From positions 11,529 to 75,528 of the forward strand of contig JACRDY010000059.1 in the NCBI GenBank assembly GCA_016218485.1: a stretch of DNA of 64,000 nt. The letters run 5' to 3'. The notes under the pieces are model-generated. The model searched no databases. It saw nothing but the letters and a program-made list of their open reading frames with translations, and had not been told where the DNA came from. Made by a program: the position numbers and the translations under genes. Positions 4,271 to 61,841 of this stretch are shown one piece after another. Position 1 is the first letter of the stretch. Each line of letters begins with the position of its first letter. The DNA comes from Candidatus Falkowbacteria bacterium. GTDB taxonomy: Bacteria; Patescibacteriota; Patescibacteriia; JACRDY01.

Positions 4271-4343
4271 AGGTGGTTAGTGAGTAGTGAGGAGGGGGTA
4301 GGAGCCCCGCCTTCACGTTGGGACTTCGGCGCGGCCAGGGAAG

Positions 4344-5085: not shown

Positions 5086-5087
5086 AT

Positions 5088-5960: not shown

Positions 5961-5970
5961 AACAACGCAA

Positions 5971-6396: not shown

Positions 6397-6417
6397 GGAA
6401 ATAAGTTCAAAGTTCAA

Positions 6418-12789: not shown

Positions 12790-13200
12790 TAGAAGTAGGG
12801 AGGTTACTAATACGTTCCTCTCCTTACCAAGGAGAGGGCAGGTGAGGTTGCCGGAGCCTTCGGTCCCTACCCAAGGGGTGCTCGACGGTCTCCTCCTCTT
12901 ACAAGGTTCGCCGCAGGCAACCGAAGTAAGGGGAGGGACAGGGTGGGGTTAAGTTTACTGTATCGCAAAAAGTTTAAAGTATTTCGCATTGATTAGACTG
13001 CAAACCCCCTCCTGTCCTCCCCCTTATGAATAAGGGGGAGAGACGTGCTACCCCCGAACCCCACGTTACTTATTCTGTTTTCTTTTTGAATTTTATCTAG
13101 CTCTGACGGGGTAGGCAACATAGGAGGGTAATAGCCCGTCCTCCTCCTTACCAAGGAGAGGAACGCTCTAGCCTCGGCTCCACTGGACTTATTCTGTTTT
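12790..13200. repeat. GC-rich mosaic repeat cluster
   Basis: Contains ctctccttaccaaggagag twice, ggttgccggagccttcggtc, aaggggagggacagggtgggg, cctcctgtcctcccc and cttattctgttttc twice. Confidence 0.75.
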
Positions 13201-13225: not shown

Positions 13226-13262
13226 ACTAATAACTAAGGACTAAGGACTAAGGACTAAGGAC
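13226..13262. repeat. Tandem heptamer array (ctaagga)x5 immediately 5' of the pilT start; equals five tandem AAGGA Shine-Dalgarno cores
   Basis: Read directly; the last AAGGA lies 5 nt before the ATG. Confidence 0.85.
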
Positions 13263-13273
13263 TAAGGACTATT

Positions 13274-35381: not shown

Positions 35382-38222
35382 ATGCCCAGTGAATCCATCC
35401 AAATCCGCGGCGCGCGGGAACACAATCTCAAGAGCATCAACGTGGATATTCCGATTAACCAGTTCACGGTGATTACCGGCCTGTCCGGCAGCGGCAAGTC
35501 GAGCCTCGCGTTTGACACCGTCTACGCCGAGGGTCAGCGTCGGTATGTTGAGAGTCTGTCGAGTTACGCCCGGCAGTTTTTGGGCATCATGGGCAAGCCG
35601 GATGTGGACAGCATCAAGGGCCTCTCGCCGGCGATTTCGATTGAGCAGAAGAGTATCTCACACAACCCGCGCTCAACCGTCGGGACGATCACGGAAATTT
35701 ACGACTACTTGCGTCTGCTCTATGCCCGGATCGGCGTGCCGCACTGTCCGCTGTGCGGTACGGTAATCAAACCGCAAGACGCGGAGAGTATTACCAAAAA
35801 TTTGCTGACTGGTTTTGCCGGGAAAAAAGTCAAGATTCTGGCGCCCATTGTGCGTGGCAAAAAGGGCAACTACGAGCAGCTATTTTTAGACTTGAACAAA
35901 CAGGGCTATGTCCGCGTCCGGGTGGATGGCAAGGAAGGGGAGGTGACGGATTATTTTGGCCAGGGTAAGACAGTGATTGAGCGCTATGCCCCGCACAACA
36001 TTGAAGTCTTGATTGACACGATTAAAGTTGACGGTCCGGCGAAAACTCGGTTGCAGCGCTCGATTGAGTCGGCATTGAAGCTGGCCGCTGGTCTGGTGAT
36101 GGTTATTATTGAGCAGCATAAAAAAGACGCAATTGAAAAAGTTTACTCACAGCATTTAGCTTGTCCGGACTGCGGCATTAGTTTTGACAAATTACAGCCG
36201 CGCCTGTTCAGCTTCAATTCACCCTTTGGCGCCTGTCCGACCTGTCACGGTCTGGGCTTTATCCAAAAATTCGAGCCGGAGCTGATTATTCCGGACAAAG
36301 GCTGGACGCTGTCTGAGGGCGCTATTCGGCCGCAGGGGTTCAGCGTCAGCGGGTTCTTTGGTCAAATGCTCGAGACCCTCGGTCACAAGTACAAGTTTAG
36401 CGTTGAGACGCCGGTTCAGGATTTGTCCAAGAAAATCATGGATATTATTTTCTATGGCACGGATGACAAGATTGACTGGGAATTCGCCTCCAAGAGCACG
36501 GATAATGTCTGGGAGTGGACGGGTCGCTGGGAGGGGATTGTGCACCGTCTGGAGCGGCTGTACAAGCAAACGGACTCGGATAGCCGGCGGGCGGAGATGG
36601 AGCGCTACATGATAGAGCAGCCGTGCGGTGGCTGCGGCGGCGCCCGGCTCAAGCAGGAGGCGCTGGCCGTGATGCTATCCGGTAAAAATATCCATGAGAT
36701 TACCGGCTTGCCAATTACCGAGCTGGTTGCTTTTCTGTCCACGATCAAGCTGAACAAAGCGGAAACCGAGATCGGCAAACAAATCATGAAAGAGCTGGCT
36801 GACCGACTGCAGTTTCTGGTTGACGTCGGACTTGATTATTTGACGCTGGCGCGGCGCGGGGCCACGCTGTCCGGGGGCGAGGGTCAGCGGATTCGTCTGG
36901 CGACGCAGATCGGCTCGGAGCTGCGCGGCGTGACCTATATCCTGGACGAGCCGTCGATCGGCCTGCACCAACGTGATAATGAGAAACTGATCAAGACGCT
37001 CAAGAATATGCGCGATATTGGCAACACCGTCATCGTGGTGGAGCACGACGAGGATACGATTTTGGCCGCGGATTATGTGTTTGATATCGGGCCGGGCGCG
37101 GGGATCCACGGCGGGCACGTGGTGGCGGAGGGCACGCCGGAGCAGATTAAGAAAAATAAAAAATCGCTGACCGGGGCGTATCTGTCCGGCCGCCAGCACA
37201 TCAGCGTCCCGGATAAGCGGCGCCGGCCGCACGGTTTTATTGAGCTGCGCGGCGCGCGCCACAATAATTTGAAAGATATTAACGTCGACTTTCCCGTGGA
37301 AGTGCTGTGCTGCATCACCGGCGTGTCCGGCAGCGGCAAGTCCAGCCTGATTACCGACACGTTGTATCCAATACTCGCCAAGAAACTGCACTACGCGCGC
37401 GTGGTGCCCGGCGCGCATGACAGCATTGAGAATTTCGGCTATGTGGACAAGGTGATTATCATTGACCAGTCGCCGATTGGCCGGACGCCCCGTAGTAATC
37501 CAGCTACTTATACGGGAGTGTTTACTTATATTCGTGAGTTATTTGCCGCTACGAAAGAGGCTAAGATACGGGGCTACCAGCCGGGACGGTTCAGCTTCAA
37601 CGTTGAGGGCGGACGCTGCGGCAACTGCGAGGGCGACGGCGTGATTAAGATTGAGATGCATTTCTTGCCTGATGTCTATGTGGAGTGCGAGCAGTGCAAA
37701 GGTCAGCGCTACAATGAGGAAACACTGGAGGTGAAGTACAAAGACAAGAATATCGCTGAAGTTCTGAATATGACGGTGGAAGAAGCCCTGACGTTCTTCG
37801 GGCCGGTGCCGCGGATTAAGAGCAAGATGCAGACGCTCTTCGACGTTGGCTTGGGCTATATCAAGCTGGGCCAGTCCGCCACCACGCTGTCCGGCGGCGA
37901 GGCCCAGCGCATCAAGCTGACCGCCGAGTTGTCACGGCGCGATACCGGGCGTACACTGTATATACTTGATGAGCCGACCACCGGCCTGCACTTCGCCGAC
38001 ATTGAGAAGCTCCTGGAAGTGCTGAATCGTCTGGTGGACAAAGGCAACACGGTGATCGTGATTGAGCACAATCTCGACGTAGTCAAGTCCGCGGACTATA
38101 TTATTGATTTGGGTCCCGAAGGCGGCGACCGCGGCGGGCAAGTGATTGCCAAAGGCACGCCAGAGCAGATAGTCAAAGAAAAGGGGAGCTATACCGGGAA
38201 GTTTTTGCGGAGGGTGGTTTAA
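35382..38222 (+). CDS. uvrA: excinuclease ABC subunit A
   Basis: 946 aa; two ABC modules with zinc-finger insertions. Confidence 0.95.
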
Positions 38223-38334
38223 TCCATCTTTTTGCTTTTTTAGGTTATCCACAGTTTAATCTTGATTTTTGATCAGAATAGTGTATTATTATTTTTAGGA
38301 TCTAAATAATAATTAATTTTTTAAGATCAAAAAT

Positions 38335-39414
38335 ATGGAGGAATTTAAATTAAAAGCATTCAAAGTCATCCAAAATGGTAGGCAATTTTACGTTTCAACC
38401 ATCACATGTGAGCAGCTACTCGACGAAGATACCTTTAGAACCGACATTTGGAAAGAGGAATTGAAAAATACTCCATCAAAACAAGGGTATCAACGAGAAC
38501 CATCTCAAAATCATGTTAATGGAGTTGTGAAGTATATGGCTGGTGATAATATATCAATTTTTCCCACCAGTATTTTGCTAAATTGCCGTTATAAAATACC
38601 TAGTCGCGAAAATGGCAGTATATTTGAGATAACTATTGATAGACCTCTATGGATCGTGGATGGTCAGCACCGAATTTATGGCATTAGAAAGGCCATTCAA
38701 GAGAAAGGTCTAAGAGAGTGGAAAGGATTTTCTGTGCCGGTAGTTATATTAGATGAATTTGATCAAGGTGAAGAATTAGCTCAATTTAAGGTTATTAATG
38801 AGAGTCAAAAGGGGATATCTACTGGTCTGTTGCAGTGGCAGATGTATCAACAGTATACTCGTGACCCTGAAATGAAGGATAAATATAAGAGTAAAATTTG
38901 GCAGGTCAAAGCTTTAATGGCTATGGATAAACTTAATGATGACGATAATAGCCCTTGGAAAAATCATATTCAACTGCCAAACGTGGAGAAACGCAGAGAT
39001 CATTCAATTAACCAAACTTCTTTTGTGACTTCTTTGAAGCCTTTATTTAAGGATGGTTTTCTAAGTAATTATAAACTAGATGATTCGGTTTTAGTCCTTA
39101 AGAATTATTGGAAAGCGGTCTCTGTATTGTTTCCTGAGGCAATGAAAGACCATAAGCATTATTTACTATTAAAAACCCCTGGTATTTTTCCATTACATCT
39201 ATTAGCTAACGAAATATTACCGCGTTGTAACAAAGATGTCAGTATAGAGAAGATATTGGAGTATTTAAAAGTTGTTTTTAAAGATCAAAAATATAGTAAC
39301 GAATTTTGGTCGAAAAAAGGCCGAGGAGCAGCTTTGTTAGGAAGTATGAAAGGATTTAAACGTTTAGCGGATGATTTGATCATGGATCTTCCAGAACAAA
39401 CCTTAACAAAATAA
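38335..39414 (+). CDS. DGQHR domain protein (DndB-like, ParB/Srx-fold)
   Basis: 359 aa; WIVDGQHRIYGI motif; ~36% GC against a ~55% background. Confidence 0.75.
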   Translation: MEEFKLKAFKVIQNGRQFYVSTITCEQLLDEDTFRTDIWKEELKNTPSKQGYQREPSQNHVNGVVKYMAGDNISIFPTSILLNCRYKIPSRENGSIFEITIDRPLWIVDGQHRIYGIRKAIQEKGLREWKGFSVPVVILDEFDQGEELAQFKVINESQKGISTGLLQWQMYQQYTRDPEMKDKYKSKIWQVKALMAMDKLNDDDNSPWKNHIQLPNVEKRRDHSINQTSFVTSLKPLFKDGFLSNYKLDDSVLVLKNYWKAVSVLFPEAMKDHKHYLLLKTPGIFPLHLLANEILPRCNKDVSIEKILEYLKVVFKDQKYSNEFWSKKGRGAALLGSMKGFKRLADDLIMDLPEQTLTK

Positions 39415-39424
39415 TTAAAATAAT

Positions 39425-39565
39425 ATGGCTAGAAAGATGACCAGTCCTCGAGTAGCTAAGATTGCCTCAAAGCAGTTAAAAAGCAAGACTGCTAATAAGG
39501 CGGCCAAGATGACTGCGGCCAGCGCTTTATCTCAGCGAGAAAAAAGTCGTCGTAAACGAAAGTAG
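39425..39565 (+). CDS. small lysine/alanine-rich basic protein (histone-H1-like composition), 46 aa
   Basis: MARKMTSPRVAKIASKQLKSKTANKAAKMTAASALSQREKSRRKRK translated by hand; 10 nt after the DGQHR gene; followed by a terminator; absent from the ORF track because it is under 60 aa. Confidence 0.45.
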   Translation: MARKMTSPRVAKIASKQLKSKTANKAAKMTAASALSQREKSRRKRK

Positions 39566-39574
39566 AGAATTCAT

Positions 39575-39610
39575 CTAAATCACCTCCGCCTCCCGCGGGG
39601 GTGTTTTTTT
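39575..39610. terminator. Hairpin (cctcccgcgggggtg) + T7, intrinsic terminator closing the DGQHR island
   Basis: Read directly. Confidence 0.6.
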
Positions 39611-39639
39611 AGTTTAGAAATATTTTAACTTTGGTATGG

Positions 39640-39830
39640 TAGGGTGTGTAATAGCCCGTTCCCCTCCTTTCCAAGGAGGGGCCAGGGGCGGTTGCCGGAG
39701 CCTTCGGTCTCTACCCAAGCTTTGTTCGCAGGCCACGGTAGCAGCCAATACCTCGGCAACCTCACCCGTCCTCCCCTTAGAAAGGGGAGGAACGGTCTAT
39801 TCCCGGTTGCCGGAGTTTAAATCCAATATA
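39640..39830. repeat. GC-rich mosaic repeat (cccctcctttccaaggagggg; ggttgccggagccttcggtc; cctccccttagaaaggggagg)
   Basis: Shares modules with 12790-12900. Confidence 0.7.
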
Positions 39831-39834
39831 TATG

Positions 39835-40233
39835 ACAAAAATTTACAACCGTCGTCAATTTAAACACTTGCGGCAAAAATTAAAGAGGGAATCAACCCCT
39901 TCGGAAGATAGGCTTTGAGGCGAAATTAACAACCGCCAATTAGGATTTAAGTTTCGCCGTCAGCACGGCATCGGTAAGTACATCGTTGATTTTTACTGTG
40001 CCGAACTACAATTGGTTATTGAGGTGGATGGCGACTCGCATACCGACCCCGATATTTACGCCGCTGACCGCATTCGTGATGCTGCATTAAGTGTTCAGGG
40101 TATAACGATTAAGCGGTATTACAGCAATGAAATTTTTAATAATTTAGAAGGTGTTATCTTGGATATTGAGGAAGTGTGTCGTGGGATAAAAAACAGCCGC
40201 CCGGGGGAGACCCGAGCGGAGCGGTGGCCATGA
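39835..40233 (+). pseudogene. DUF559 (Vsr-like endonuclease-fold) gene remnant: no ATG start and an in-frame TGA at the conserved Trp position
   Basis: Frame translates KIYNRRQFKHLRQKLKRESTPSEDRL*GEINNRQLGFKFRRQHGIGKYIVDFYCAELQLVIEVDGDSH..., matching the DUF559 consensus end to end; TGA at 39916-39918. Confidence 0.65.
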
Positions 40234-40256
40234 TGGTATAGCCGATGGTTTGGTAC

Positions 40257-40547
40257 CTACTCGCCGTAGGTACGGGTATACATCGCGAGCTGTTTGGCGA
40301 TGATCACGATCGGCTGACCCGGTTCGATGACGTAGGGTGGTCCACCCAAGCAGGATTTTCGTCCATTGATCATGAGTATTCCTTCTTGGGTTGAGATTGT
40401 TGTTCGCTGTACTGCCGGGCCGAGATCGTATTCGCCCGCCATGATCACATTCCAGGATTTGACGGGGTTGCCGTCAGCATCCAGTGCCCTCACATTTTTG
40501 ATTCGGCCATCGTGGCCGTGTCCAATGCTGGTTACCTTGCTGAGCAC
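40257..40547 (-). CDS. hypothetical small protein
   Basis: 96-aa ORF; weak DUF3892-like feel; not confidently assigned. Confidence 0.4.
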   Translation of the reverse strand: MLSKVTSIGHGHDGRIKNVRALDADGNPVKSWNVIMAGEYDLGPAVQRTTISTQEGILMINGRKSCLGGPPYVIEPGQPIVIIAKQLAMYTRTYGE

Positions 40548-40710
40548 CCTCCACCTCCTTGGATCTCGTCGTGTGAGTTTAAAGTATACGGTCAGTCACA
40601 AAAAGTCAAGTGAATCGTTCTATAGAGTAGTGGCGGATTTGGCCCCTTTGGTTTATAATTATACTGTTACTCTTTGGCAGCTCAATTAACTTATTCATAA
40701 AAAATGCAGT

Positions 40711-41748
40711 ATGAATAATTCTCCATTGTTTCCGCGTTTGTGGGAAAAATTTAAACAGCTGTTCGTGATTGTGGCTGTGGTGCTGGTGGTCGGCTCAATC
40801 GTGGTGTATTTTGGCGCCACTAGTCTGACGCGACTACGGTATGGCGGGATCAGCGCTAATGACGCGCCAAGTTACGGCGGCGCGTTCGGAGATTATGGCG
40901 TGGCGACCGGCCTGAGCGCGAGTGATTCTCGTGGCGTGTTTCAGACCAAAGTCGCGTATGAGGCGGATGACTCGGGCAACGGACTGGTGGCAGCGGCGCA
41001 GGCTCAGGAGGGTGAGCTGACTCAGAAGAAAATTATCCGCAATGGCGCGCTCGGTCTGTTCGTGGACAGTCCGGAGGAGTCAGCGCAGGCGATTGAGCGG
41101 GTGGCTCTGAGCGTGGACGGTTTTGTCCAGGATTCGAATATTAGCGAGCAGACGAATGGCAGCAAGTACGGGGAAGTGGTCATCCGGGTGCCGGCTGTTG
41201 AGTTTGATTCCGTTATGGAGCAAATCAAGGGCCTGGCTCGTGAAGTGGAATTTGAGCGCGAGAACGCGCAGGATGTGACGGAGCAGTTTGTCGACCTGGA
41301 CGCGCAGCTGCGCAATTATCGGGCGGAAGAGGGGCGCTATCTTAAATTCATGAATCAGGCGAAGAATATTGATGAGACGCTCAAAGTCGCCGAGCGGCTG
41401 AGCGTGGTCCGCGGGCAGATTGAGCGGATCGAGGGTCAGCTCAAGTTTCTGTCCCGGCAGGTTGATATGTCAGTCATCAGTGTCAGCCTGACATCGTATG
41501 ACGACGTTAAGGTCTTTGGCGTGCGCTGGCGGCCGTTGTATGAGCTCAAAAAAGCGGCGCGCGGTCTGTTTGAGGCGGGTCGGACGTATATCAACTTTGT
41601 TATCAAGTTGGTTGTCTATCTGCCGATCATTGTGCTCTGGGCGCTGACTATCCTTCTGGTTACCTGGGTCGTTTGGAAATTGTTGAAGTGGCTGCACCGG
41701 CGATTTTTGCAAGGGAAAAAATTGGATGATAGTTGGCCGCGGCAGTAA
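40711..41748 (+). CDS. DUF4349-like membrane-anchored protein (N-terminal TM, coiled-coil middle, C-terminal TM)
   Basis: 345 aa with that architecture. Confidence 0.6.
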   Translation: MNNSPLFPRLWEKFKQLFVIVAVVLVVGSIVVYFGATSLTRLRYGGISANDAPSYGGAFGDYGVATGLSASDSRGVFQTKVAYEADDSGNGLVAAAQAQEGELTQKKIIRNGALGLFVDSPEESAQAIERVALSVDGFVQDSNISEQTNGSKYGEVVIRVPAVEFDSVMEQIKGLAREVEFERENAQDVTEQFVDLDAQLRNYRAEEGRYLKFMNQAKNIDETLKVAERLSVVRGQIERIEGQLKFLSRQVDMSVISVSLTSYDDVKVFGVRWRPLYELKKAARGLFEAGRTYINFVIKLVVYLPIIVLWALTILLVTWVVWKLLKWLHRRFLQGKKLDDSWPRQ

Positions 41749-51237: not shown

Positions 51238-51339
51238 AAAAATTAGAAATTGGAGAAAAACCCTTTGAAATAAAAGGTTTTTTATTTGCCAAAATAGGGG
51301 ATTCTGGTATAGTTGATGAGGGAGAAATTCAGTATTTCC

Positions 51340-51440
51340 TGCGTTTTAGTTATTGGAAAGAGATTTAGTATATCGTATGTCGTATATGGTATGTGGGGAA
51401 ATTCCCCCATATACCATATACCACATACTATATTCCCCCC
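51340..51440. repeat. gtatatg-heptamer-based palindrome directly upstream of paralog 1
   Basis: tcgtatgtcgtatatggtatgtgggg / ccccatataccatataccacatac. Confidence 0.6.
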
Positions 51441-51441
51441 T

Positions 51442-53091
51442 ATGCTCAACTGCAAGAATTGTAATCAACCTTTCACCATCTACCCCGAAGACCAGGAAAT
51501 GTACGATAAGTTTGCCGTACCCGCGCCGCGGCGTTGTCCGCGTTGCCGGCTGATTCAGCGGCTGATGTTCCGGAACGCTCGGGCCCTGTATTACCGGAAG
51601 TGCGACCGCAGCGGCGAGACCATTTTGTCCAGCTATAATCCGAGTCAGCCGTTCCCGGTGTACAAGCCGGATATTTGGTGGAGTGACCAATGGGAAGCCA
51701 TGGATTACGCCCGGGATTATGATTTTGGCAAACCATTTTTTGCCCAATTCAAAGAGCTGAATGACGTGGTACCGCACTTCAGCCTCTTCGTCAGTAATGG
51801 CACGGTGGTGAATTGCGACTTTACCAACTGTATTGGTTTTTCCAAGAATTGTTATTTGACGTTTGAGACTGACTACGCGGAGGACAGCTATTACTCCAAC
51901 CTCTTGAAACGGAGCAAGGACATGGTGGACTGTTCTATTTGCTATGATGATGAATTTTGCTACCAGTGCGTTGATTGCCAGGCGTCGTACGGCTTGCGCT
52001 ATTGTCAAAATTGCACCGGTTGCCGGGACAGCTATTTCCTGTTTGATTGTAAATCGTGTAATGACTGCATCGGCTGTATCAACCAGCGCTATCAGAAATT
52101 CATGATTTTTAACGAGCAGTACAGTGAAGCAGAATATAACCAGAAAAAAGCCGCGCTGCGGCTGGATACCCGCTCGGGCGTCGCGGCGCTCGCTTCGCAG
52201 TGCCAGCAGTTTTTCGGGAAGCACCCGCACAAAAATTTGCAGTTTGAAAAGAACGTCAATAGTGTCGGTAACTATTTGTATAACTCCAAAAACGCATTCC
52301 AGTGCTTCGACTGCAGCGACCTGGAAGACTGCCGCTACTGCGCTAAGCTGTCAATCGGCGTCAAGTCGTGCATGGATTACAACTCGTGGGGCGACCGGGC
52401 GGAGCTCGTCTACAGCTGTTCGGATGTCGGCGGCGGCGTGTATAACCTGAAATTTTGCTGGGCGATTGATACCAAGACCTCAGACTGTGAATACTGCACG
52501 CAGTGTATTGCCTGCAAGGACTGCTTTGGCTGCAGCGGACTGCAAAAGAAGCAGTACTGCATTTTGAATAAACAGTATTCGGAAAAAGAGTATTTCGCGT
52601 TGAAAGAAAAAATTATTGCCAAAATGACAGCCGATGGAGAGTATGGTGAATTTTTTCCGGCAGAGCTGTGTCCGTTTGCCTATAATGAAACCATCGTGAT
52701 GGATTATTTCCCCCTAACCAAAGATGAAGCGTTGAAAGCCGGCTATCGCTGGTATGACCGGGAAAAGTCCAAGCAGCCTGCTGAAACTGAGGCGCCGGAT
52801 GCGATTGGCGAGGTGGCGGACGCCATCATTGGTAAGGTATTAGCCTGCCGTGATTGCCAGTCAAATTATAAGATTATTAAACAAGAATTAGATTTTTGCC
52901 GTCGGGCGAGCGCGCCGATTCCTAGCCAGTGTCCGGACTGCCGACATTTTGGCCGAATGAACAAGCGGATGCCGCTGAGTTTGATCACGGTCAAATGCGA
53001 TAAATGCGGCAATGACATGACGACCGGATATACTGCCGGGGCGGTGCAGAAGGTGTATTGCGAGGAATGTTATCAGAAGGAAATTTACTAG
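51442..53091 (+). CDS. Cys-rich multi-zinc-ribbon repeat protein, paralog 1 of 6 (unassigned family)
   Basis: N-terminal CxxC...CPRCR ribbon; two internal Cys-rich blocks each ending in YC(I/M)(L/F)N(K/E)QYSE.EY; GEYGEFFP...PFAYNET; C-terminal ribbons ending YCEECYQKEIY. Confidence 0.8.
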   Translation: MLNCKNCNQPFTIYPEDQEMYDKFAVPAPRRCPRCRLIQRLMFRNARALYYRKCDRSGETILSSYNPSQPFPVYKPDIWWSDQWEAMDYARDYDFGKPFFAQFKELNDVVPHFSLFVSNGTVVNCDFTNCIGFSKNCYLTFETDYAEDSYYSNLLKRSKDMVDCSICYDDEFCYQCVDCQASYGLRYCQNCTGCRDSYFLFDCKSCNDCIGCINQRYQKFMIFNEQYSEAEYNQKKAALRLDTRSGVAALASQCQQFFGKHPHKNLQFEKNVNSVGNYLYNSKNAFQCFDCSDLEDCRYCAKLSIGVKSCMDYNSWGDRAELVYSCSDVGGGVYNLKFCWAIDTKTSDCEYCTQCIACKDCFGCSGLQKKQYCILNKQYSEKEYFALKEKIIAKMTADGEYGEFFPAELCPFAYNETIVMDYFPLTKDEALKAGYRWYDREKSKQPAETEAPDAIGEVADAIIGKVLACRDCQSNYKIIKQELDFCRRASAPIPSQCPDCRHFGRMNKRMPLSLITVKCDKCGNDMTTGYTAGAVQKVYCEECYQKEIY

Positions 53092-53154
53092 CGCACAGCA
53101 CAGAGCTTATAGCACAAAGCTATGCGCTCTGAGCTCTGTGCTTTGAGCTACTTT
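53092..53154. repeat. Inter-paralog palindromic spacer (gcacagcacaaagc...gctctgagctctgtgctttgagc); same at 54841-54903 and 58418-58477
   Basis: Three near-identical copies read directly. Confidence 0.8.
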
Positions 53155-54840
53155 ATGCCAACCTGTAAACAATGCAATCAACCTTTCATCCTTGGCCAGA
53201 TCGGCACAGATATTTTGCGGCGGCTGGATGTACCTGAACCGTCAGTGTGTGATGTTTGCGCCGTGCGCCAGCTGATGGCCTTTCGGAACGAGCGGACTTT
53301 TTATTCCAGCCAGTGTCAGAAGTGTTCGAAAACCATTCTATCGATGTATCCGCCAGACACCGCGCTGAGCGTCTACTGTCGCGACTGCTGGTGGGGAGAT
53401 ACTTGGGACGGCACGCAGTTTGGCCGAGTGTATCGTGGGCCGGAAACATTTTTCCAAGAGCTAGCTGAACTGCAGAAAGTCGTGCCTCGGGAAGGATTGG
53501 TTAACCTGAACAGTCCGGATTGCGATTACTGCAACCACGTCCGTGATTGCAAGTCCTGCTATATGTGTTCGCTCTTGTCTGATCAGTGTGAAGAATGTTA
53601 CTACTGCTACTGGATTGTCACGGTGAAGGATTCAGCGGCCTGTTACTATGGGCGCAATAACCAGCGCTGTTACTTCTGTGTCGCCACGATCCAGAGCTAT
53701 GGCTGCTCGTATGTATTGGAATGTGAAAATTGTTTAGACTGCCACTATAGCTTTGATCTGCGAGGCTGTAAGAATTGCATGTTCAGCAGCAACTTACGCA
53801 ATCAGCAGTATGTTTTTGAGAATCAACAGTTGACCAAGACTGAATACGAAACGCGGGCCGCGGCAGTCAATCGGGGGAGCTGGCAGCAGTCACGAGACTC
53901 TGTGCAACGCTGGCATCAGCTGATTGACCAGGCGGTGAAGGCGTACTCATACCAGAGTAAATGTGAAAATTCTACCGGGGATAATATCCAGAGCAGCGTG
54001 AACACCCAGCTCGCCTATAATAGTTTTGAAGATGAAAACGCCTATAACGCCGCGAGCGTGATTTGTGCTAAGAATATTTTTAACGGTTTTGCCGTGGGCA
54101 GCCAGCCGACCGAATGGGCGAGTAATATCGCCGTCGTGAAGGGCGGCACGCAGATCGTCAGCTGTTTCAACACCGCGTACTCCAGCGATATTTATTTTTG
54201 TGAGAATCTAATTTCCTGCATGGACTGCATCGGCTGTATTGGCCTGCACAAAAAGAAGTACTGCATTCTGAATACACAGTATGAGGAAGAGGAGTATAAA
54301 AAAATCAAAGCCGAGCTACTCGGGTATTTGCGTCAGAGCGGCGCGCTGTCGGAATTTTTCCCAAAGTCATTTTCGCCATTTGCCTACAATGAAACCGCGG
54401 CGCAGGATTTTTATCCTTTGACGAAAGAACAAGCCGTTCAGCTGGACTATACTTGGAAGGATGAATTACCCGGGACTTTTGGCCATGAGACGCTGCCAGC
54501 CGATGGCGTGCCCGATCGGATTGCCGAGGTGAATGATGACATCTTACGGCAGACTCTAGCCTGTATTCACTGCGGCCGGAATTTCAAATTAATTAAACAA
54601 GAGCTGACACTTTATCGGTCGCTCGGCGTGCCGATCCCGCGCGAATGTTTTAATTGTACGTTGCGTCAGCGGCTGGACTTGATGGGGGAGCGTGATTTAC
54701 GGGAGCGGCAGTGTGATTGTACGCGAGCAGAACATCAGCAGCATCAGGGTAAAACATGCCAAAATAAGTTTTTGACGAAATATACCGCGAAAGATAAGAA
54801 GGTGTACTGCGAGGAGTGTTATCAGAAGGAAATTTACTAA
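53155..54840 (+). CDS. Cys-rich multi-zinc-ribbon repeat protein, paralog 2
   Basis: Same architecture; true start MPTCKQCNQPF (the ORF-track start lies in the inter-paralog palindrome). Confidence 0.8.
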   Translation: MPTCKQCNQPFILGQIGTDILRRLDVPEPSVCDVCAVRQLMAFRNERTFYSSQCQKCSKTILSMYPPDTALSVYCRDCWWGDTWDGTQFGRVYRGPETFFQELAELQKVVPREGLVNLNSPDCDYCNHVRDCKSCYMCSLLSDQCEECYYCYWIVTVKDSAACYYGRNNQRCYFCVATIQSYGCSYVLECENCLDCHYSFDLRGCKNCMFSSNLRNQQYVFENQQLTKTEYETRAAAVNRGSWQQSRDSVQRWHQLIDQAVKAYSYQSKCENSTGDNIQSSVNTQLAYNSFEDENAYNAASVICAKNIFNGFAVGSQPTEWASNIAVVKGGTQIVSCFNTAYSSDIYFCENLISCMDCIGCIGLHKKKYCILNTQYEEEEYKKIKAELLGYLRQSGALSEFFPKSFSPFAYNETAAQDFYPLTKEQAVQLDYTWKDELPGTFGHETLPADGVPDRIAEVNDDILRQTLACIHCGRNFKLIKQELTLYRSLGVPIPRECFNCTLRQRLDLMGERDLRERQCDCTRAEHQQHQGKTCQNKFLTKYTAKDKKVYCEECYQKEIY

Positions 54841-54903
54841 CACACAGCACAAAGCGCAGAGCACAAAGCTATGCGCTCTGAGCTCTGTGCTTTGAGCTAC
54901 TGT

Positions 54904-56565
54904 ATGCCAACCTGTAAAAACTGCACCACCGACTTCACCATCACCGACGCAGACAAAACGTTCTACGCCAAGATTGACGTACCCGAGCCGACGCGCTGCC
55001 CGCAGTGCCGGAAACAGCGGCGTTTGAGCTTCCGCAATGAGTCAAATTTTTATTTAACCAAATGTCAGCGGTGTCATAAAGAAACGGTTTCGGTGTATTC
55101 ACCGAATAAACCTTTGGTGGTGTATTGTAAAGACTGCTGGTGGGGTGAGGACTGGAATCCGTTGGATTACGGCCAAGAGTTTGATTGGCAGAAAAGTTTT
55201 ACCGAGCAGTTTAGAGATCTGATGGCGGTGGTGCCGCGGCCGGCGCTCTTGCATTCCGAGAGCGTGAACTGCGATTATAGCATGTTTTCGGCCAATAATA
55301 AGGACTGCTACATGCTGGTACAGTCCAGTAACTGCGAAGAATGCCACTACTGCTACTGGGTGCAGAAATGCCGTAATTGTTTGGATTCGGCGTTTTGTTT
55401 GGACTGCGAGCTGTGCTATCAAGTTGTCGGCGGGGAAAAGTGTTATAACTGTTTTTATTGTAACAATTGTTCCGGTTGCTTGGACAGTCGGTTTCTGCTT
55501 AATTGTCGTGGCTGCAAAAATTGCTTTGGCTGCGTTAATCTCAATAACGCGCAATATTGCATTTTTAATGAACAGAAAACGAAAACCGAGTATGAAACAT
55601 TTATTCAATCAGTAGATTTTATTTCATACCGACACTACCGAGAGTACCAGGAAAAGTTTTATCAGTTTTCTTTACAGCACCCGCGTCGTTTCGCTGAAAT
55701 TTATCAGGCGGATAATTCTACGGGTAATTATCTCAAACGGGTTAAAAACGTCACCATGATTTTTGACGGTTATGATATTGAAGACTGTAGCTACGGTCAG
55801 CACGTCTTGCGTGAGGTGAAAGATGTGATGGATGTCAGTAATGCCGCTCGTAAAGCAGAATTAGTCTATGAAAGTGTTCAGGCGGTATTGAACGTGTATC
55901 AGATTCGTTTTAGTTTATTCCCGCGTCAAGGCGCTTCATTTTTGGATTACTGCGATCATTGCGTCGGGGCTAAGAATTGTTTCGGCTGCATCGCGGTGCG
56001 GAATCAAAAGTATTGCATTTTGAATAAACAGTATAGTGAAAAAGAATATACCGTTGTGGTGCCGAAAATTATTAATCACCTCAAACAAACAGGGAAGTGG
56101 GGAGAATTTTTTGATCCGAGTCTGTCGGCGTTTGGCTATAACGAAACGAACGCCATGGAATTTTTCCCGTTGACGAAAAAAGCGGCAATGACTCAAGGGT
56201 TTAACTGGGAGGATAACACCGGCGGTACTTTCGGCCAGGAAACAATCAAGTGGGCAAACATGCCGGATCGTTTCAGCGACTATGCGGGCGACTTGAGCCG
56301 AGAAGTGTTGACGTGCTCTGACTGCCGGCGGAATTATAAGTTGGTGGCCGTAGAACTGGATTTTTATAAAAAATATAGCTTACCCATTCCGCGGCAGTGC
56401 CCGAAGTGTCGCCACCGCGAGCGCATCACCAGCCGGAATCCGGAACAGCTGTATCACCGTGCCTGTATGAACGCAGGGTGTAAGAATGAATTTGAAACCA
56501 CGTATTCACCCGCCCGACCGGAAAAAGTTTATTGTGAAGCGTGTTACCAGAAAGAGATTTATTAG
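54904..56565 (+). CDS. Cys-rich multi-zinc-ribbon repeat protein, paralog 3
   Basis: Same architecture; 5' ~100 nt near-identical to paralogs 5 and 6. Confidence 0.8.
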   Translation: MPTCKNCTTDFTITDADKTFYAKIDVPEPTRCPQCRKQRRLSFRNESNFYLTKCQRCHKETVSVYSPNKPLVVYCKDCWWGEDWNPLDYGQEFDWQKSFTEQFRDLMAVVPRPALLHSESVNCDYSMFSANNKDCYMLVQSSNCEECHYCYWVQKCRNCLDSAFCLDCELCYQVVGGEKCYNCFYCNNCSGCLDSRFLLNCRGCKNCFGCVNLNNAQYCIFNEQKTKTEYETFIQSVDFISYRHYREYQEKFYQFSLQHPRRFAEIYQADNSTGNYLKRVKNVTMIFDGYDIEDCSYGQHVLREVKDVMDVSNAARKAELVYESVQAVLNVYQIRFSLFPRQGASFLDYCDHCVGAKNCFGCIAVRNQKYCILNKQYSEKEYTVVVPKIINHLKQTGKWGEFFDPSLSAFGYNETNAMEFFPLTKKAAMTQGFNWEDNTGGTFGQETIKWANMPDRFSDYAGDLSREVLTCSDCRRNYKLVAVELDFYKKYSLPIPRQCPKCRHRERITSRNPEQLYHRACMNAGCKNEFETTYSPARPEKVYCEACYQKEIY

Positions 56566-56650
56566 GAACGACACGCCCTCTGGGCGTGTTATGTTTGTTA
56601 CGCGCTCTGTAACCATAACACAGCCAGAGGCTGTGTCGTTCCCTTGGAGG
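56566..56650. repeat. Inter-paralog gacacgccctctgggcgtgttatg...cataacacagccagaggctgtgtc palindrome
   Basis: Same family as 48850-48950 and 60112-60190. Confidence 0.8.
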
Positions 56651-56695
56651 AACAATTTTTGACAAAATTTAAAATCCTGGCTATACTAAAGCATT

Positions 56696-58417
56696 ATGCC
56701 ATACTGCCGAAATTGCTCCCAAGCGTTTGACATTACGTTAAAAGAAAAAGATTTTTACGCTAAGATGGGCACCAAACAGCCGAGCCATTGTTTTGATTGC
56801 CGGATGCAGCGCAAGTACGCGTTCAGAAATGAGCGCAAAATTTATAACCGCCAGTGCAGCTTGTGTCAGCAACAGATTATCAGCTCTTACCCGGCGGACG
56901 CGCCTTTTCCGGTGTATTGTTTTGATTGTTGGTGGTCGGATCGGTGGGACGGTTTGAGCTACGGCCGGGATTTTGATTGGTCCCGTCCATTTTTTTCGCA
57001 ACTCTCTGAGCTGTCGCTCAAGGTCCCGCACCAAGCCCTGCCCAATCCGAATAATAACCAGAACAGCCCGTATGTTACGTGGGCCGATTGGAACAAAAAT
57101 TGTTATTTAGTCTTTTCTTCTTCAATGTGTGAAGATTGTTTGTACTCTGAAGTTTTGGTTGACGCTCGAGACTGTGTTGACTGCACGAATGTTAAAGAAT
57201 CGGAGAACTGTTATTTTTCTATCGATTTGCAGAAATGCTATAACGTCAAATTTAGCCGCAATGTAAAAGATTGCCTGGATTGTAATTTTTGTTTTGATTG
57301 CGCTGACTGCAAAAATTGTTTTTTGTCTTATAATCTGCGTCACGGAGAATACTATATCCGTAATGTTCAGTACTCGCCGGACGCGTATGTCCAGGCAGTC
57401 GAGCGGATTATGGCCAGCCGCAGCGAGCTCGTGCGGGCGTGGGATGAATTTATTAACATGATGCGCTCTGACGCCATCCACCAGTTCGCTCGTCAGGTGA
57501 AGTGTGAAGACGTGGAGGGTGATGAGCTGTATGCCTGCAAGCGCAGTTTCAATAGTTTTGATTCGCGCGAGATTCAGGATTGCTGCAATATTATTTACGG
57601 CGACAAGATTAACGACTGCGCTGATAGCTTCGCCATCGTTGACCACGCTGAAAAATGTTTGGAGGTCTTTAGTGTCAATGGCGGCTATCAAAATATGTAC
57701 GGCTATGGTTATTGGGGAAAATCCCAAAATAGCCGGTACAGCAATACCTGCGTTTCGTCCGTTGATTGTTTCGGCTGCATTGGTCTAAAACACCAGAAAT
57801 ATTGTATTCTGAACAAGCAGTATTTGGCGGCCGAATATCAAATCATGGTCAAAAAAGTTTTGGAACATATGCGGAAGTCTAATTATCCGACGTACGCTGG
57901 CCAGACGAGCGAGTGGGGTGAATTTTTCCCGGTGCAGCTTTCACCCTTTGCTTATAATGAAACAATGGCTCATGTTTATTATCCGCTTAAAAAAGAAGAA
58001 GTTTTAGCGCGCGGCTGGGGCTGGAGGGACGAAAATGATATACTCACTGGTAAAGAAACTATTCATGGGGAGGCATTGCCGGATGCTGCGGCATCAGTTC
58101 CCAAGGGCATGACTGACCAGGTGATCGGCTGCGCTGACTGTGGCCGGAATTACAAGCTGATCAAGCAGGAAATAGATTTCTACACCAAACATACTCTGCC
58201 GCTGCCCAAGATGTGTCCGGAGTGCCGCTTTCAGCAGCGGTTGGCCCTGCGTAATCCGCGTAAGCTGTGGCCGCGGCAGTGCACCTGTCTCCTGGGTCAC
58301 GCCAGCCATCAGGGTCAATCAGTCTGTCCGATTCATTTCAAGACCACCTACCGGCCGGCCGAAGGGGGAGAGGCGAAAGTGTATTGTGAGGAATGTTATC
58401 AGAAGGAAATTTACTAG
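56696..58417 (+). CDS. Cys-rich multi-zinc-ribbon repeat protein, paralog 4
   Basis: Same architecture (MPYCRNCSQAF... ...VYCEECYQKEIY). Confidence 0.8.
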   Translation: MPYCRNCSQAFDITLKEKDFYAKMGTKQPSHCFDCRMQRKYAFRNERKIYNRQCSLCQQQIISSYPADAPFPVYCFDCWWSDRWDGLSYGRDFDWSRPFFSQLSELSLKVPHQALPNPNNNQNSPYVTWADWNKNCYLVFSSSMCEDCLYSEVLVDARDCVDCTNVKESENCYFSIDLQKCYNVKFSRNVKDCLDCNFCFDCADCKNCFLSYNLRHGEYYIRNVQYSPDAYVQAVERIMASRSELVRAWDEFINMMRSDAIHQFARQVKCEDVEGDELYACKRSFNSFDSREIQDCCNIIYGDKINDCADSFAIVDHAEKCLEVFSVNGGYQNMYGYGYWGKSQNSRYSNTCVSSVDCFGCIGLKHQKYCILNKQYLAAEYQIMVKKVLEHMRKSNYPTYAGQTSEWGEFFPVQLSPFAYNETMAHVYYPLKKEEVLARGWGWRDENDILTGKETIHGEALPDAAASVPKGMTDQVIGCADCGRNYKLIKQEIDFYTKHTLPLPKMCPECRFQQRLALRNPRKLWPRQCTCLLGHASHQGQSVCPIHFKTTYRPAEGGEAKVYCEECYQKEIY

Positions 58418-58477
58418 TGCACAGCACAAAGCGCACAGCACAAAGCTATGCGCTCTGAGCTCTGTGCTTTGAGCTAT

Positions 58478-60109
58478 ATGCCTAAATGTAAACAATGCAC
58501 CACCGATTTCCCCATCACCGACGCAGACAAAACGTTCTACGCCAAGATTGACGTACCTAAACCGACGCGCTGTCCGCAATGCCGCCGCGTTCGCCGATTG
58601 AGCTACCGTAATGAAATCACATTGTATCCCGCCATCTGTGGTTTGTGTAAGAAAAGCATGATCAGCATGTACAACCCGGACGGATCGTATGTGGTGTATT
58701 GTCAGGATTGCTGGTGGGGAGACGGCTGGGACCCGACGGCATCCGGTCAGACGTATGATCCGAGCCGATCATTTTTTGAACAATTTAGTGAGTTGATGAA
58801 AAAAGTGCCGCGGATCAGTTTGATTAATAAAGAAGCGGACAATAGCGAGTACTGTAATTTTTCTTGGCGGAACAAAAATTCCTACCTTTTATTTACCGGC
58901 GGAGAGAACGATGACGTGTTTTATGCTAATCGCTGCTGGAAGTGCCGGAGTAGTATTGATTGCTCCAACCTGTATAATTGTGAATTGTGTTATGAAGCGA
59001 CTGATTCCGCCAATTGTTATAATTGCGCTTGGCTAGAATACTCAACCGGCTGCTCTGACTGTTGGCTGGGGTACAACCTTAGCGGCTGCTCGGACTGTTT
59101 CGGCTGCGTTAACCTGTCTAATCAGAAATTTCATATTTTTAATACCCCGGTACCTGAAGCCGAGTACCGTCAGCGGATCGCGGAGTTGAAGAAGGACCTG
59201 CCGGCGGCGGCGCAGCTATTTCGGGCACAAAAAATGAAAGGGGTGCGCAAGTACGCCAATATTATAAAATCAGTGAATTGCAGCGGTGATTCAATCGTTG
59301 GCAGCAAGAATTGCCAGTCGTGTTTCCGGGTCAAAGACGCGGAAGACTGCAAGTACGTTTGCGATACGACATTGATCAAAGACAGCTATGACGTTGATAA
59401 CGATGATCATTCAGAATTGCTCTATGAGTGCATTGGTAACGAGTCCAACCATAATCAGCAATTCATTGACATCTGCTGGTTTGATCGGGATATTCAGTAC
59501 TGTAGCCTCTGCATGAGCTCAAAGAATCTGTTTGGCTGTGTGGGAATGAAAAACGCGGAGTACTGTATTTTGAATAAAAAATATTCAGCGGAAGAATATG
59601 AGACGCTACGCCAGCAGATTATTGTCAAAATGAAACAAGATGGGGAATATGGTGAGTTTTTTCCCAGTAAATTTTCGCCCTTTGGTTATAATGAGACGAA
59701 CGCCTCCCTGTATTACGAGCTCAAAAAAGAGCAGGCTGTTGCCGCCGGCTTTACCTGGCAGGACAATTTGCCGTCAACGACTGGTAAAGAAACGCTCAAG
59801 GAATTACCGGCGGACATTAGCCAGGTAAACGAGGGGATTACCAAAGAGATTTTGGCCTGCCAGTCGTGCGGTAAGAATTATAAATTTATTCCCCAGGAAG
59901 TGAAACTGTATAAAATGCTCGGCGTACCGCTCCCGCCACAGTGTTTCCGCTGTCGTCATGTTGGCCGGATCCACCGACGGAATGGCCAGACACTCTATAG
60001 CCGCACCTGCATGAAAGACGGCTGCAAGAATTCATTTGAGACGCCATACGCGCCGGATCGGAAAGAAGTGGTTTACTGTGAGGAGTGCTATCAGAAGGAA
60101 ATTTACTAA
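58478..60109 (+). CDS. Cys-rich multi-zinc-ribbon repeat protein, paralog 5
   Basis: Same architecture. Confidence 0.8.
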   Translation: MPKCKQCTTDFPITDADKTFYAKIDVPKPTRCPQCRRVRRLSYRNEITLYPAICGLCKKSMISMYNPDGSYVVYCQDCWWGDGWDPTASGQTYDPSRSFFEQFSELMKKVPRISLINKEADNSEYCNFSWRNKNSYLLFTGGENDDVFYANRCWKCRSSIDCSNLYNCELCYEATDSANCYNCAWLEYSTGCSDCWLGYNLSGCSDCFGCVNLSNQKFHIFNTPVPEAEYRQRIAELKKDLPAAAQLFRAQKMKGVRKYANIIKSVNCSGDSIVGSKNCQSCFRVKDAEDCKYVCDTTLIKDSYDVDNDDHSELLYECIGNESNHNQQFIDICWFDRDIQYCSLCMSSKNLFGCVGMKNAEYCILNKKYSAEEYETLRQQIIVKMKQDGEYGEFFPSKFSPFGYNETNASLYYELKKEQAVAAGFTWQDNLPSTTGKETLKELPADISQVNEGITKEILACQSCGKNYKFIPQEVKLYKMLGVPLPPQCFRCRHVGRIHRRNGQTLYSRTCMKDGCKNSFETPYAPDRKEVVYCEECYQKEIY

Positions 60110-60111
60110 CA

Positions 60112-60190
60112 AGGGAACGACACGCCCTCTGGGCGTGTTATGTCGGTTACACGCTCTGTAACGATAACACAGCCAGAGGCTGTGTCGCTC
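60112..60190. repeat. Inter-paralog palindrome (same family as 56566-56650)
   Basis: Near-identical. Confidence 0.8.
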
Positions 60191-60200
60191 CGAACAGCAT

Positions 60201-61841
60201 ATGCCAACCTGTAAACAATGCACCACCGACTTTCCCATCACCGACGCAGACAAAACGTTCTACGCTAAGATTAGCGTACCCGAGCCGACGCGCTGTCCGG
60301 ACTGCCGGCAGCAGCGACGGTTGTCGTGGGTCAATGAAATGAATCTATATCCCCGTCAGTGCGACCTATCAGGTAAAAATATTATTTCGTCATGTCGGCC
60401 GGATAGCGGCTTGATTATTTATGATACTCACCGGTGGTGGGGTGACGGCTGGGAAGGTCTGAATTTTGGGGTTGAGTATAATGAGGGTCAAAAATTTTTT
60501 GATCAATTTTTTGCATTACATAAGACCGTACCCCATCCAGCGCTCAACGTTACCTATGGCACGTTGATTGACAGCGAGTACGTGAATTACTGTGGTCATA
60601 CCAAAAGTAGCTACCTGATATTTGACAGTGACTACGATGAGGATTGCTATTACTGCTATTCAGTTAATAATTCTAAAGACCTGGTTGATTGTTTAAAAAT
60701 GCAGCGTTCTGAATTGTGCTATAGCTGTATTGACTGCGATGAATGTTTTAACTTGTTTTACTCTCAAGATTGTTTGCGCTGTTCCGAGAGTTATTGGTTA
60801 AAAAACTGTTACAACTGCGTCAATTGTTTTGGCTGCGTGAATGCGCGGAATCAGAAGTATTGTTGGTTCAACGAACAATTAACGCCGGAAGAATATCAAC
60901 GTCGTTTAGCCGGAGCTACCATCAGCAGCCGTCAGGCGGTTAGACAGTGGCAGACGAAGTATGCGGATTTTAGATTGCAGTATCCCTGTATTTACCAGCA
61001 CGGGATCAAAAATGACGGCTGTACCGGCGATTACCTGAAAAACACCAATCAAGTCGCTGATTCGTATGATTGCTGGGAGGCGCAGAATTGCCGCTACTGT
61101 TACGCGATTTATTTTTCCTCAAAAGATATGTATGACGTTTTCCAGTGGGGGAATTGTCAGCTGATGTATGAAGGCGTGGTGGTGGGGGAGAATGATTATA
61201 ACTGCAAATTTTGTTTCCAATGCTATAACAGCTGTCAAAACCTAGAATACTGTTTTGAGAGTCATGGCTGCAAAAACTGCTTTGGCTGTGTTGGCTTAAA
61301 GAAAAAAGAATTTTGCATTCTTAATAAACAGTATACCGAACCGGAGTACTTACGATTACGGGAACAGATTATTCAGAAAATGAAAGCCGATGGTGAATAT
61401 GGCGAGTTTTTCCCGGCGGCATATTCTCCGTTTGGTTATAATGAAACGACGGCCCGGTTTTACTATCCGTTGTCGCGCGAGCAGGCGCTGGAACGTGGCT
61501 GGCGCTGGTTTGATCAAGAGGAAAAGAACGTTGATCATAAAGCACCGCCGGATGATTTGGGAATGGTGACCGAGGATATATTGAGAGAAACGTACGTCTG
61601 CGCCTGTGGCAAGTCGTTCAAAATTATTCCCCAGGAATGGAAATTTTATCAGAATTTAAAAATCCCTCTGCCCGATCAATGTTACATCTGCCGTCATCAG
61701 GATAGACTACGGCAGCGCAACCCGCAGCATCTCTGGCCGCGTCAGTGTGCCAAATGTCAGAAAGACATGCAGACGACATATGCTCCGGACCGGCCGGAAA
61801 TAGTCTACTGTCGTGAATGTTTCCGCGAGGCAGTGTATTAG
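60201..61841 (+). CDS. Cys-rich multi-zinc-ribbon repeat protein, paralog 6
   Basis: Same architecture; C-terminus diverged to YCRECFREAVY. Confidence 0.8.
   Translation: MPTCKQCTTDFPITDADKTFYAKISVPEPTRCPDCRQQRRLSWVNEMNLYPRQCDLSGKNIISSCRPDSGLIIYDTHRWWGDGWEGLNFGVEYNEGQKFFDQFFALHKTVPHPALNVTYGTLIDSEYVNYCGHTKSSYLIFDSDYDEDCYYCYSVNNSKDLVDCLKMQRSELCYSCIDCDECFNLFYSQDCLRCSESYWLKNCYNCVNCFGCVNARNQKYCWFNEQLTPEEYQRRLAGATISSRQAVRQWQTKYADFRLQYPCIYQHGIKNDGCTGDYLKNTNQVADSYDCWEAQNCRYCYAIYFSSKDMYDVFQWGNCQLMYEGVVVGENDYNCKFCFQCYNSCQNLEYCFESHGCKNCFGCVGLKKKEFCILNKQYTEPEYLRLREQIIQKMKADGEYGEFFPAAYSPFGYNETTARFYYPLSREQALERGWRWFDQEEKNVDHKAPPDDLGMVTEDILRETYVCACGKSFKIIPQEWKFYQNLKIPLPDQCYICRHQDRLRQRNPQHLWPRQCAKCQKDMQTTYAPDRPEIVYCRECFREAVY

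Follow-up and report, generated by a model that had tools for sequence, protein, structure and literature searches.

ParB is a CTP (cytidine triphosphate)-gated DNA clamp, and GmrSD, BrxU and SspE are type IV restriction proteins in which a DUF262 ParB-like nucleoside triphosphatase (NTPase) is fused to a DUF1524 HNH nuclease, the nucleases of SspE and BrxU being regulated by the NTPase. DndB is an ATP-modulated DNA-binding regulator (PMC4507180; PMC10164549 ref. 51) and has been described as a ParB-like domain combined with HEPN (PMC3632139). DpdB is an ATPase which is stimulated by DNA and by DpdA, and which enables DpdA to act on DNA (PMC10164549). A QR pair, the DGQHR pentapeptide, and FxxxN are listed as family motifs (PMC4619093). 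In Shedu, PC4/Whirly domains are proposed to sense nucleic acids, and fusions of ParB/Srx NTPase domains to Shedu nucleases occur as well (bioRxiv 10.1101/2023.08.10.552793). Here, we analyzed a DGQHR gene and the small basic open reading frame (ORF) of 46 amino acids (aa) that follows it in a stretch of 64,000 nucleotides (nt) from Candidatus Falkowbacteria bacterium (contig JACRDY010000059.1, positions 11,529 to 75,528; hereafter the window). The original prediction had proposed that the two genes could form a new two-gene module. Our results point instead to a solo DGQHR gene on what is most likely a small acquired islet, and to a distinct DGQHR family whose members elsewhere have other partners, most conspicuously PC4 proteins.

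The window protein, which contains WIVDGQHRIYGI, was correctly assigned to the DGQHR/ParB-like superfamily. It exceeded the cut-offs of both TIGR03187 (116.7 bits, cut-off 58.85) and Pfam PF14072 (61.8 bits, gathering cut-off 29.1), and its sequence is identical to that of MBI5621919.1, ‘DGQHR domain-containing protein [Candidatus Falkowbacteria bacterium]’. A search covering 5.8 billion proteins retrieved 72 homologues, nearly all between 340 and 390 aa long, which aligned over their full length at 25–69% identity. Sixteen residues were invariant in a 65-sequence family alignment, including G51-Y52-Q53-R54 (QGYQR, with the QR pair), D109, Q111 and R113 (DGQHR), and F151 and N155 (FxxxN). Since every invariant residue is retained in the window protein, its gene looks functional. 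The hosts belong to at least six phyla and comprise Patescibacteria, Chloroflexota, Actinobacteria, Verrucomicrobia, Deinococcota, and metagenome-assembled genomes of Gammaproteobacteria. Cultured phages, plasmids, and IMG/VR yielded only relatives of at most 28% identity from other DGQHR subfamilies, and thus no evidence for a phage- or plasmid-borne family. Judged by sequence, this is a patchily distributed and previously uncharacterised family, distinct from DndB and DpdB.

Both of these identities were considered and rejected. The DndB model TIGR03233 gave 11.7 bits (E = 0.095) against an equivalog cut-off of 328, and the PADLOC model for DndB gave 20.3 bits; the DpdB model NF041060 gave 79.1 bits against an equivalog cut-off of 300. 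PADLOC matched the window protein to DpdB (E = 5e-22) and DndB only, in both cases weakly. Because the scores fall far under both curated cut-offs, the protein is neither DndB nor DpdB. DpdB is nevertheless the best-scoring named family (79 bits with the NCBIfam model) and aligned with the window protein over nearly its full length. Both proteins have a ParB-fold N-terminal domain followed by a C-terminal domain of alpha helices, and they have PadC, pNOB8 ParB, Atu1540, Srx, and SspE as common distant structural neighbours (PMC10164549 for DpdB). Helicases and phospholipase D (PLD) nucleases occur in some homologous loci, as they do in dpd clusters. In contrast to DpdB, neither the window gene nor its homologues in annotated loci are accompanied by genes for DpdA, a TGT-like transglycosylase, or DpdC, and among plasmid records only proteins of about 25% identity carry the DpdB name. 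The resemblance to DndB consists of the DGQHR motif and the PF14072 score above the gathering threshold, which make DndB a plausible functional model, but dndCDE genes are missing beside the window gene.

The claim that the gene stands alone also held: there are no dnd or dpd genes within about 10 kb of it. None were found in annotated homologous loci or among the scanned neighbour proteins either, and no examined homologue was embedded in a Dnd cluster. In one locus (L082), queA and queG lie upstream of the DGQHR gene; these are tRNA-queuosine genes, not dpdA. A further explanation is that the window protein is an accessory or regulator of the DndB or DpdB type, serving a modification system encoded elsewhere in the genome. 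The common domain family and overall architecture (PMC10164549) and the unlinked position of dndA in some genomes (PMC3632139) would fit such a role. We regard it as highly improbable, given the scores under both equivalog cut-offs, the missing dnd and dpd genes in the window and in homologous loci, and the fact that the genes for DndB and DpdB normally lie within their respective clusters.

The AlphaFold2 model of the window protein (predicted local distance difference test, pLDDT, 93.9; predicted template modelling score, pTM, 0.89) displayed an alpha/beta N-terminal domain of the ParB/Srx fold, followed by an all-helical C-terminal domain. Its best matches among solved structures were ParB-N, PadC, KorB, Srx, BrxU, and SspE, whereas the C-terminal domain had no solved structural match. 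Comparison of the DGQHR profile with PDB chain sequences returned a spurious match to protein A only. The conserved C-terminal columns of the family alignment contain no HNH, EHxxP, or Rx4-6H (HEPN) motif, the last being a further difference from DndB, and the window protein had no Pfam match to DUF262, DUF1524, HNH, ParBc, or helix-turn-helix (HTH) domains. The likeness to GmrSD, BrxU, and SspE is confined to the NTPase core: the protein carries no nuclease fusion, nor does a nuclease gene come after it. With ParB, KorB, and PadC it shares the predicted fold of the N-terminal domain only. Sequence identity is about 10%, no HTH or parS-binding domain was detected, parA is absent nearby, and the gene is located on a low-GC islet rather than in a partition locus.

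The base composition of the gene deviates strongly from its surroundings, as had been noted. Its GC content is 0.348 (0.297 at third codon positions, GC3), compared with 0.552 (GC3 0.703) in uvrA and 0.509 over the window as a whole. In ten or more other lineages, the DGQHR gene is likewise lower in GC than its flanks by at least 0.09, and the difference is 0.09–0.13 in many lineages. The window UvrA is 100% identical to the NCBI entry ‘excinuclease ABC subunit UvrA [Candidatus Falkowbacteria bacterium]’, and relatives at 80% and 78% identity were available on contigs of 183–243 kb (loci L090 and L091, 7001-12700). Both keep the order uvrB-uvrA, but neither locus has a DGQHR gene, the 46-aa ORF, or DUF559. 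Instead, uvrA is directly followed by genes for an OLD-family ATPase-nuclease, a SET-domain protein, and a Y1_Tnp-like protein in L090, with uvrC 6 kb later, and by a Y1_Tnp-like gene in L091. The drop in GC of 16–20 points, the absence from close relatives, and the placement of the nearest homologues in other contexts together argue that the DGQHR gene was very probably acquired horizontally, in agreement with the prediction. Because relatives carry different cargo after uvrA, the gap between uvrA and uvrC can be regarded as a cargo hotspot in this lineage of the candidate phyla radiation, and the low-GC stretch at about 38223-39424 is most likely a small acquired islet within it.

Similar landing sites were found elsewhere. 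A low-GC DGQHR islet lies directly after uvrA in the window (35382-39414) and in L017 (4544-8634; an HNH gene follows), directly after uvrB in L016, L063, and L064 (L016 7710-11149), and 3 kb from uvrB in L008 (764-6843). Of 22 non-redundant lineages whose upstream sequence reached 3 kb or more, 4 had uvrA or uvrB by the DGQHR gene, where a rough estimate gives an expectation below 0.2; the enrichment was noticed post hoc. We take it as a shared preference for a landing site rather than as proof of a link to repair. Such a link would make the protein a lesion or modification sensor acting with UvrA/UvrB in nucleotide excision repair, or a gene placed for co-induction, and genes for HhH-GPD proteins, AP-endonuclease, and uracil-DNA glycosylase do occur near two other family members. 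We consider it very unlikely, however: repair genes are absent from the vicinity of most family members, the DGQHR gene forms a low-GC islet in each uvr-adjacent case, and the variable site with unrelated cargo after uvrA in the lineage of the window favours an insertion hotspot.

The recurrence of the DGQHR gene together with the small ORF was assessed in 91 loci: four came from exact look-ups of the closest homologues, 15 from genomes, and 56 from metagenomes, and further annotated contigs were added. The specific pairing occurred once in about 90 loci, namely in the window. Searches for the small-protein family by tblastn and by hidden Markov model (HMM) over all 91 loci detected a copy in one locus with a DGQHR homologue (L030), 5 kb away and on the opposite strand. 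No small basic ORF follows the closer relatives: downstream there is (i) a 285-aa protein with two transmembrane (TM) segments for the homologue with 69% identity; (ii) a 149-aa gene in convergent orientation, together with an integrase-like ORF, for that with 53%; and (iii) a 119-aa ORF with a hydrophobic segment for that with 40%. A recurrent module of DGQHR gene and small basic protein, as originally proposed, is thus not supported. Since the 46-aa ORF comes from an independent, ubiquitous family, its adjacency to the DGQHR gene is lineage-specific and does not constitute a conserved system.

Two of these loci show further features. In L030, a compact operon (267-6523) encodes the DGQHR protein, a 153-aa ORF, type III Mod, type III Res, and a PC4 protein of 193 aa; the copy of the small basic protein gene is convergent to the 3′ end of this operon and abuts the PC4 gene. 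In L002, an ORF with a C-terminal signature of tyrosine recombinases (2749-2937, minus strand; …LRHGFATYL…LLGHESLDTTTRYVH) lies about 560 nt past the 53% homologue, which hints that this homologue may sit on a mobile element.

The 46-aa ORF itself is almost certainly a real gene missed by NCBI annotation; its exact product is recorded from a Logan gene call only, with no NCBI source. An exhaustive HMMER search (1.84 billion representatives) retrieved 15 homologues with E-values from 4e-6 to 1e-3, which have in common the motif KVTSxRVAKxASKxLRSKxxxKxxKxxAGSALSQREK, often present as a tandem pair. A profile search extended the family to at least 6,884 proteins. Most members are about 84 aa long with two repeats of KVTSxKVAxxASKxLRxxxTSKxxKSxAGSALSQ (relatives P0073-P0203 among them). 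They occur in Bacteroidota, Proteobacteria, Chloroflexota, Aminicenantes, and other groups, and all named members are annotated as ‘hypothetical’. The AlphaFold2 model of the 46-aa protein (pLDDT 78.7) is a helical hairpin of residues 8-19 and 25-36. We regard the ORF as genuine because of its homologues, the conserved motif, the size of the family, and the predicted hairpin. The missing Shine-Dalgarno sequence was rejected as a counterargument, as most window genes have none. With regard to its description as histone-H1-like, the composition does fit; a mere composition bias, however, is not what the conserved motif and predicted fold indicate. The likeness to histone H1 or nucleoid proteins is one of composition only, with no match to a known DNA-binding family. 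The 46-aa protein had no match in Pfam, NCBIfam, or PADLOC at E-values up to 1, and its two-repeat relatives had none in Pfam.

In the three contexts of small-protein homologues that were examined, the neighbours were an MvaI/BcnI restriction-modification (R-M) pair, a transposase in Chryseobacterium, and housekeeping genes in Hyphomicrobium; the DGQHR gene was absent from all of them. Two loci from unrelated genomes (L085 2709-3325 and L087 4001-4695) have a small-protein homologue followed after 3–6 nt by a gene for a protein of 131–147 aa. By eye, these proteins look multi-TM and resemble the small TM proteins 3′ of some DGQHR genes, but they have no detectable homology to each other. The GC content of the 46-aa ORF is 0.461, and its GC3 of 0.447, against 0.297 for the DGQHR gene, hints at a different history, although this is a comparison over 47 codons only.

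To see what does accompany the DGQHR family, neighbours were clustered over all loci. After redundancy removal at 85% identity, 59 lineages remained, and in 52 of these the downstream sequence was 400 nt or longer. A gene for a PC4-like protein that binds single-stranded DNA (PF02229, one or two domains, 84–170 aa) was found directly downstream in 19 loci, corresponding to 17 of the 52 lineages (33%). The DGQHR proteins linked to PC4 form two clades in a neighbour-joining tree, while the window protein groups with those of L001 and L002, beside the clade with the most varied partners. Examples of the PC4 arrangement are L007 (10001-11476), L033 (7998-9599), L039 (8007-9403), and L083 (7001-8346), often with a methyltransferase (MTase), type III Res, or PLD-SNF2 helicase nearby. 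More generally, in 28 of the 52 lineages (54%) another ORF on the same strand, 60 aa or longer, starts no more than 100 nt past the DGQHR stop codon. Other genes in this position encode (i) small membrane proteins, in L001, L004, L005, L025, and L036; (ii) an HNH protein in L017, the only locus with a separate HNH gene; (iii) a DUF2130 protein in L019; and (iv) DUF4145, HATPase_c_3, DUF5343, and Trypsin_2 proteins and a dCMP-deaminase fusion. Family members are often the first gene of a short operon with a varying second gene.

The wider neighbourhoods bear out the anticipated association with defence and DNA modification. In L030, the type III Mod-Res operon is bracketed by the DGQHR and PC4 genes. 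Single homologous loci combine two Dam-type MTases with an AlwI restriction endonuclease and DUF2130, an OLD-family ATPase-nuclease with a PIF1 helicase and Fic, or PC4 with a UvrD-like helicase; PLD-SNF2 helicases and an N6/N4 MTase were also observed. PADLOC has no model for this DGQHR family or its PC4 partner, and the PC4, TM, DUF2130, and other partners matched no PADLOC models except for type III R-M components and weak HNH matches. No mention of DndB together with PC4 was found in the searchable literature, nor was a description of the DGQHR-PC4 pair. The arrangement in the 17 PC4 lineages recalls the PC4/Whirly-type sensor domains of defence proteins such as Shedu (N-terminal domain). 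The window differs from it: an HMM of the PC4 partner had no match in the stretch searched (28001-50000), and the 46-aa hairpin has no detectable similarity to PC4.

These neighbourhoods bear on the possibility that the window genes are a true two-gene module after all, with the DGQHR protein as the conserved NTPase or sensor and the 46-aa hairpin filling the slot taken elsewhere by PC4-like proteins. The 10-nt gap, the common strand, and the terminator-like sites upstream (weak) and downstream (strong) are consistent with such a module, and the 46-aa ORF is probably co-transcribed with the DGQHR gene. The frequency of close co-directional second genes, PC4 in 17 of 28 cases, fits as well, as does L030, the sole other DGQHR locus with a small-protein homologue, where this homologue abuts the PC4 gene of the same operon region. 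We still judge a true pair unlikely. It occurred once in about 90 loci, the 69% relative has a two-TM protein in its place, the large small-protein family was seen in contexts unrelated to DGQHR, and the GC3 of the two genes differs. Moreover, the very heterogeneous neighbours are what a plain defence-island neighbourhood would also give. A broader version, in which the DGQHR family acts as the nucleotide-gated DNA sensor of undescribed small modules for defence or DNA surveillance, appears rather doubtful to us. Here, the second gene would be swappable, encoding PC4 in a third of the lineages and otherwise a membrane, HNH, HEPN-like DUF4145, or DUF2130 protein, and the 46-aa protein would be the partner in the window.

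On balance, we lean slightly towards a reading in which the window gene encodes an accessory DGQHR NTPase of a defence islet and its pairing with the 46-aa ORF is incidental. The cargo of the islet would be one intact stand-alone DGQHR gene. By analogy with DpdB, DndB, SspE/BrxU, and ParB, the ParB/Srx N-terminal domain would bind and hydrolyse a nucleoside triphosphate (NTP) through the residues of the QR, DGQHR, and FxxxN motifs, and the NTP cycle might drive dimerisation or clamping on DNA via the helical C-terminal domain. Such a protein, probably a dimer, would bind DNA under the control of a nucleotide and serve as a sensor, loader, or regulator, not as a nuclease; it could sense or prepare DNA for the activity of a partner. 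In the PC4-linked clades, the partner would plausibly capture single-stranded DNA. In the window, the DGQHR protein may act alone as a regulator or binder, may act with the hairpin protein, or may be an orphaned component.

Several points weigh against this reading. The putative defence role is assigned through guilt by association, with metagenomic loci (a few dozen) as its source. Beside the window gene there is no effector that could be recognised as a nuclease, membrane protein, or PC4, so that the gene may serve some other role or form no working system. DNA binding through the C-terminal domain is proposed by analogy, for a domain lacking a solved match. The adjacency to uvrA or uvrB in 4 of 22 lineages could indicate a link to DNA repair rather than defence. 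Finally, the difference in GC3 between the DGQHR gene and the 46-aa ORF (0.30 vs. 0.45) rests on 47 codons, and the two genes could have arrived jointly, as both relatives at the uvrA site lack both.

The order of genes in this part of the window is uvrB, a gene for a DSP-type phosphatase, uvrA, the DGQHR gene, the 46-aa ORF, a DUF559 pseudogene, DUF4349, a 561-aa ORF, a 132-aa ORF, and uvrC; the 561-aa ORF between DUF4349 and uvrC had no Pfam match. Features of the islet and its flanks are compiled in Table 1.

Table 1. Position of genes, signals, and repeats at the DGQHR locus (window coordinates)
Feature	Position	Strand	Description
uvrA (context)	35382..38222	+	946 aa; conserved gene, the variable region starts after it
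Weak terminator-like hairpin at the uvrA end	38209..38232	+	9 pairs, 3 of them G-C, then a T-run
AT-rich spacer	38223..38334	+	112 nt, GC 0.205; upstream of the DGQHR gene
Sigma-70-like promoter match TTGATT-16-TATTAT	38262-38289	+	Match to the consensus; putative promoter
DGQHR gene, intact and stand-alone	38335..39414	+	359 aa; ParB/Srx-fold N-terminal domain, all-helical C-terminal domain
46-aa basic ORF	39425..39565	+	Single-repeat member of a very large small-protein family; 10 nt past the DGQHR stop codon
Strong intrinsic-terminator-like hairpin and T-run	39581..39612 (hairpin 39581-39603)	+	9 pairs (7 G-C), loop of 5, TTTTTTT; closes the two-gene unit
GC-rich palindromic hairpin repeat CCCCTCCTTTCCAAGGAGGGG	39661..39681	.	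In the spacer before DUF559
DUF559 (Vsr-like endonuclease) pseudogene	39832..40233	+	Full-length frame with a single in-frame TGA at 39916-39918

As predicted, DUF559 is a pseudogene. The part past the stop codon still matched PF04480 (E = 1.5e-7). The stop codon (...EDRL*GEI...) represents a nonsense mutation of recent origin or else a site of read-through; the intact codon would presumably be TGG (Trp). The spacer before DUF559 is rich in repeats: the hairpin CCCCTCCTTTCCAAGGAGGGG has two related copies in the window (12817-12837 and 13141-13161; none expected by chance), and a 12-nt direct repeat, CGGTTGCCGGAG, occurs at 39689-39700 and 39804-39815, which together suggest a dispersed repeat element. 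An Rfam scan of 37500-41000 gave no match. Repeats flanking the islet were limited to short AT-rich matches such as the 20-nt copies of TTTTTTAAGATCAAAAATAT, which we regard as low-complexity chance matches, and no convincing target-site duplication was found.

This setting raises the question of whether a larger mobile or defence island has been decaying here and left the islet as its remnant, with the DGQHR gene as a surviving passenger that has no current function at the system level. The neighbouring pseudogene with its nonsense codon, the repeat-rich spacer, the rapid gene turnover at the hotspot, and the absence from the window of partner genes of the kinds seen in homologous loci would agree with decay. 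We nevertheless find a remnant rather unlikely. The DGQHR protein covers 100% of the homologue length and keeps all invariant residues, its gene has a promoter-like site and a terminator of its own, and other lineages, too, have solo DGQHR genes with no obvious partner.

Two further observations were made elsewhere in the window. Six tandem ORFs of 546–592 aa lie on the plus strand at 51313-61841, three of which are preceded by the near-identical string agcacaaagcgcAgagcacaaagct; this points to an array of paralogues whose 5′ leaders are conserved. At 13249-13273, three tandem copies of taaggac are located directly upstream of the ATG of a 349-aa ORF at 13274.

For the window, the result is mostly a clarification: a solo DGQHR gene resides on an acquired islet of small size, and the two-gene system put forward earlier is not supported. 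The DGQHR-PC4 pair and the hotspot at the uvr flanks are better leads than the pair with the 46-aa ORF. Positions just after uvrA or uvrB recur as landing sites of such islets in unrelated phyla. The 46-aa ORF exposes a very large helical-hairpin family of small proteins that has no Pfam or NCBIfam model; were the second gene of DGQHR operons indeed swappable, with the 46-aa protein as one partner, this would provide the first functional handle on at least 6,884 unannotated small proteins. The DGQHR family described here, which differs from both DndB and DpdB, is found repeatedly in R-M and defence neighbourhoods across many phyla.

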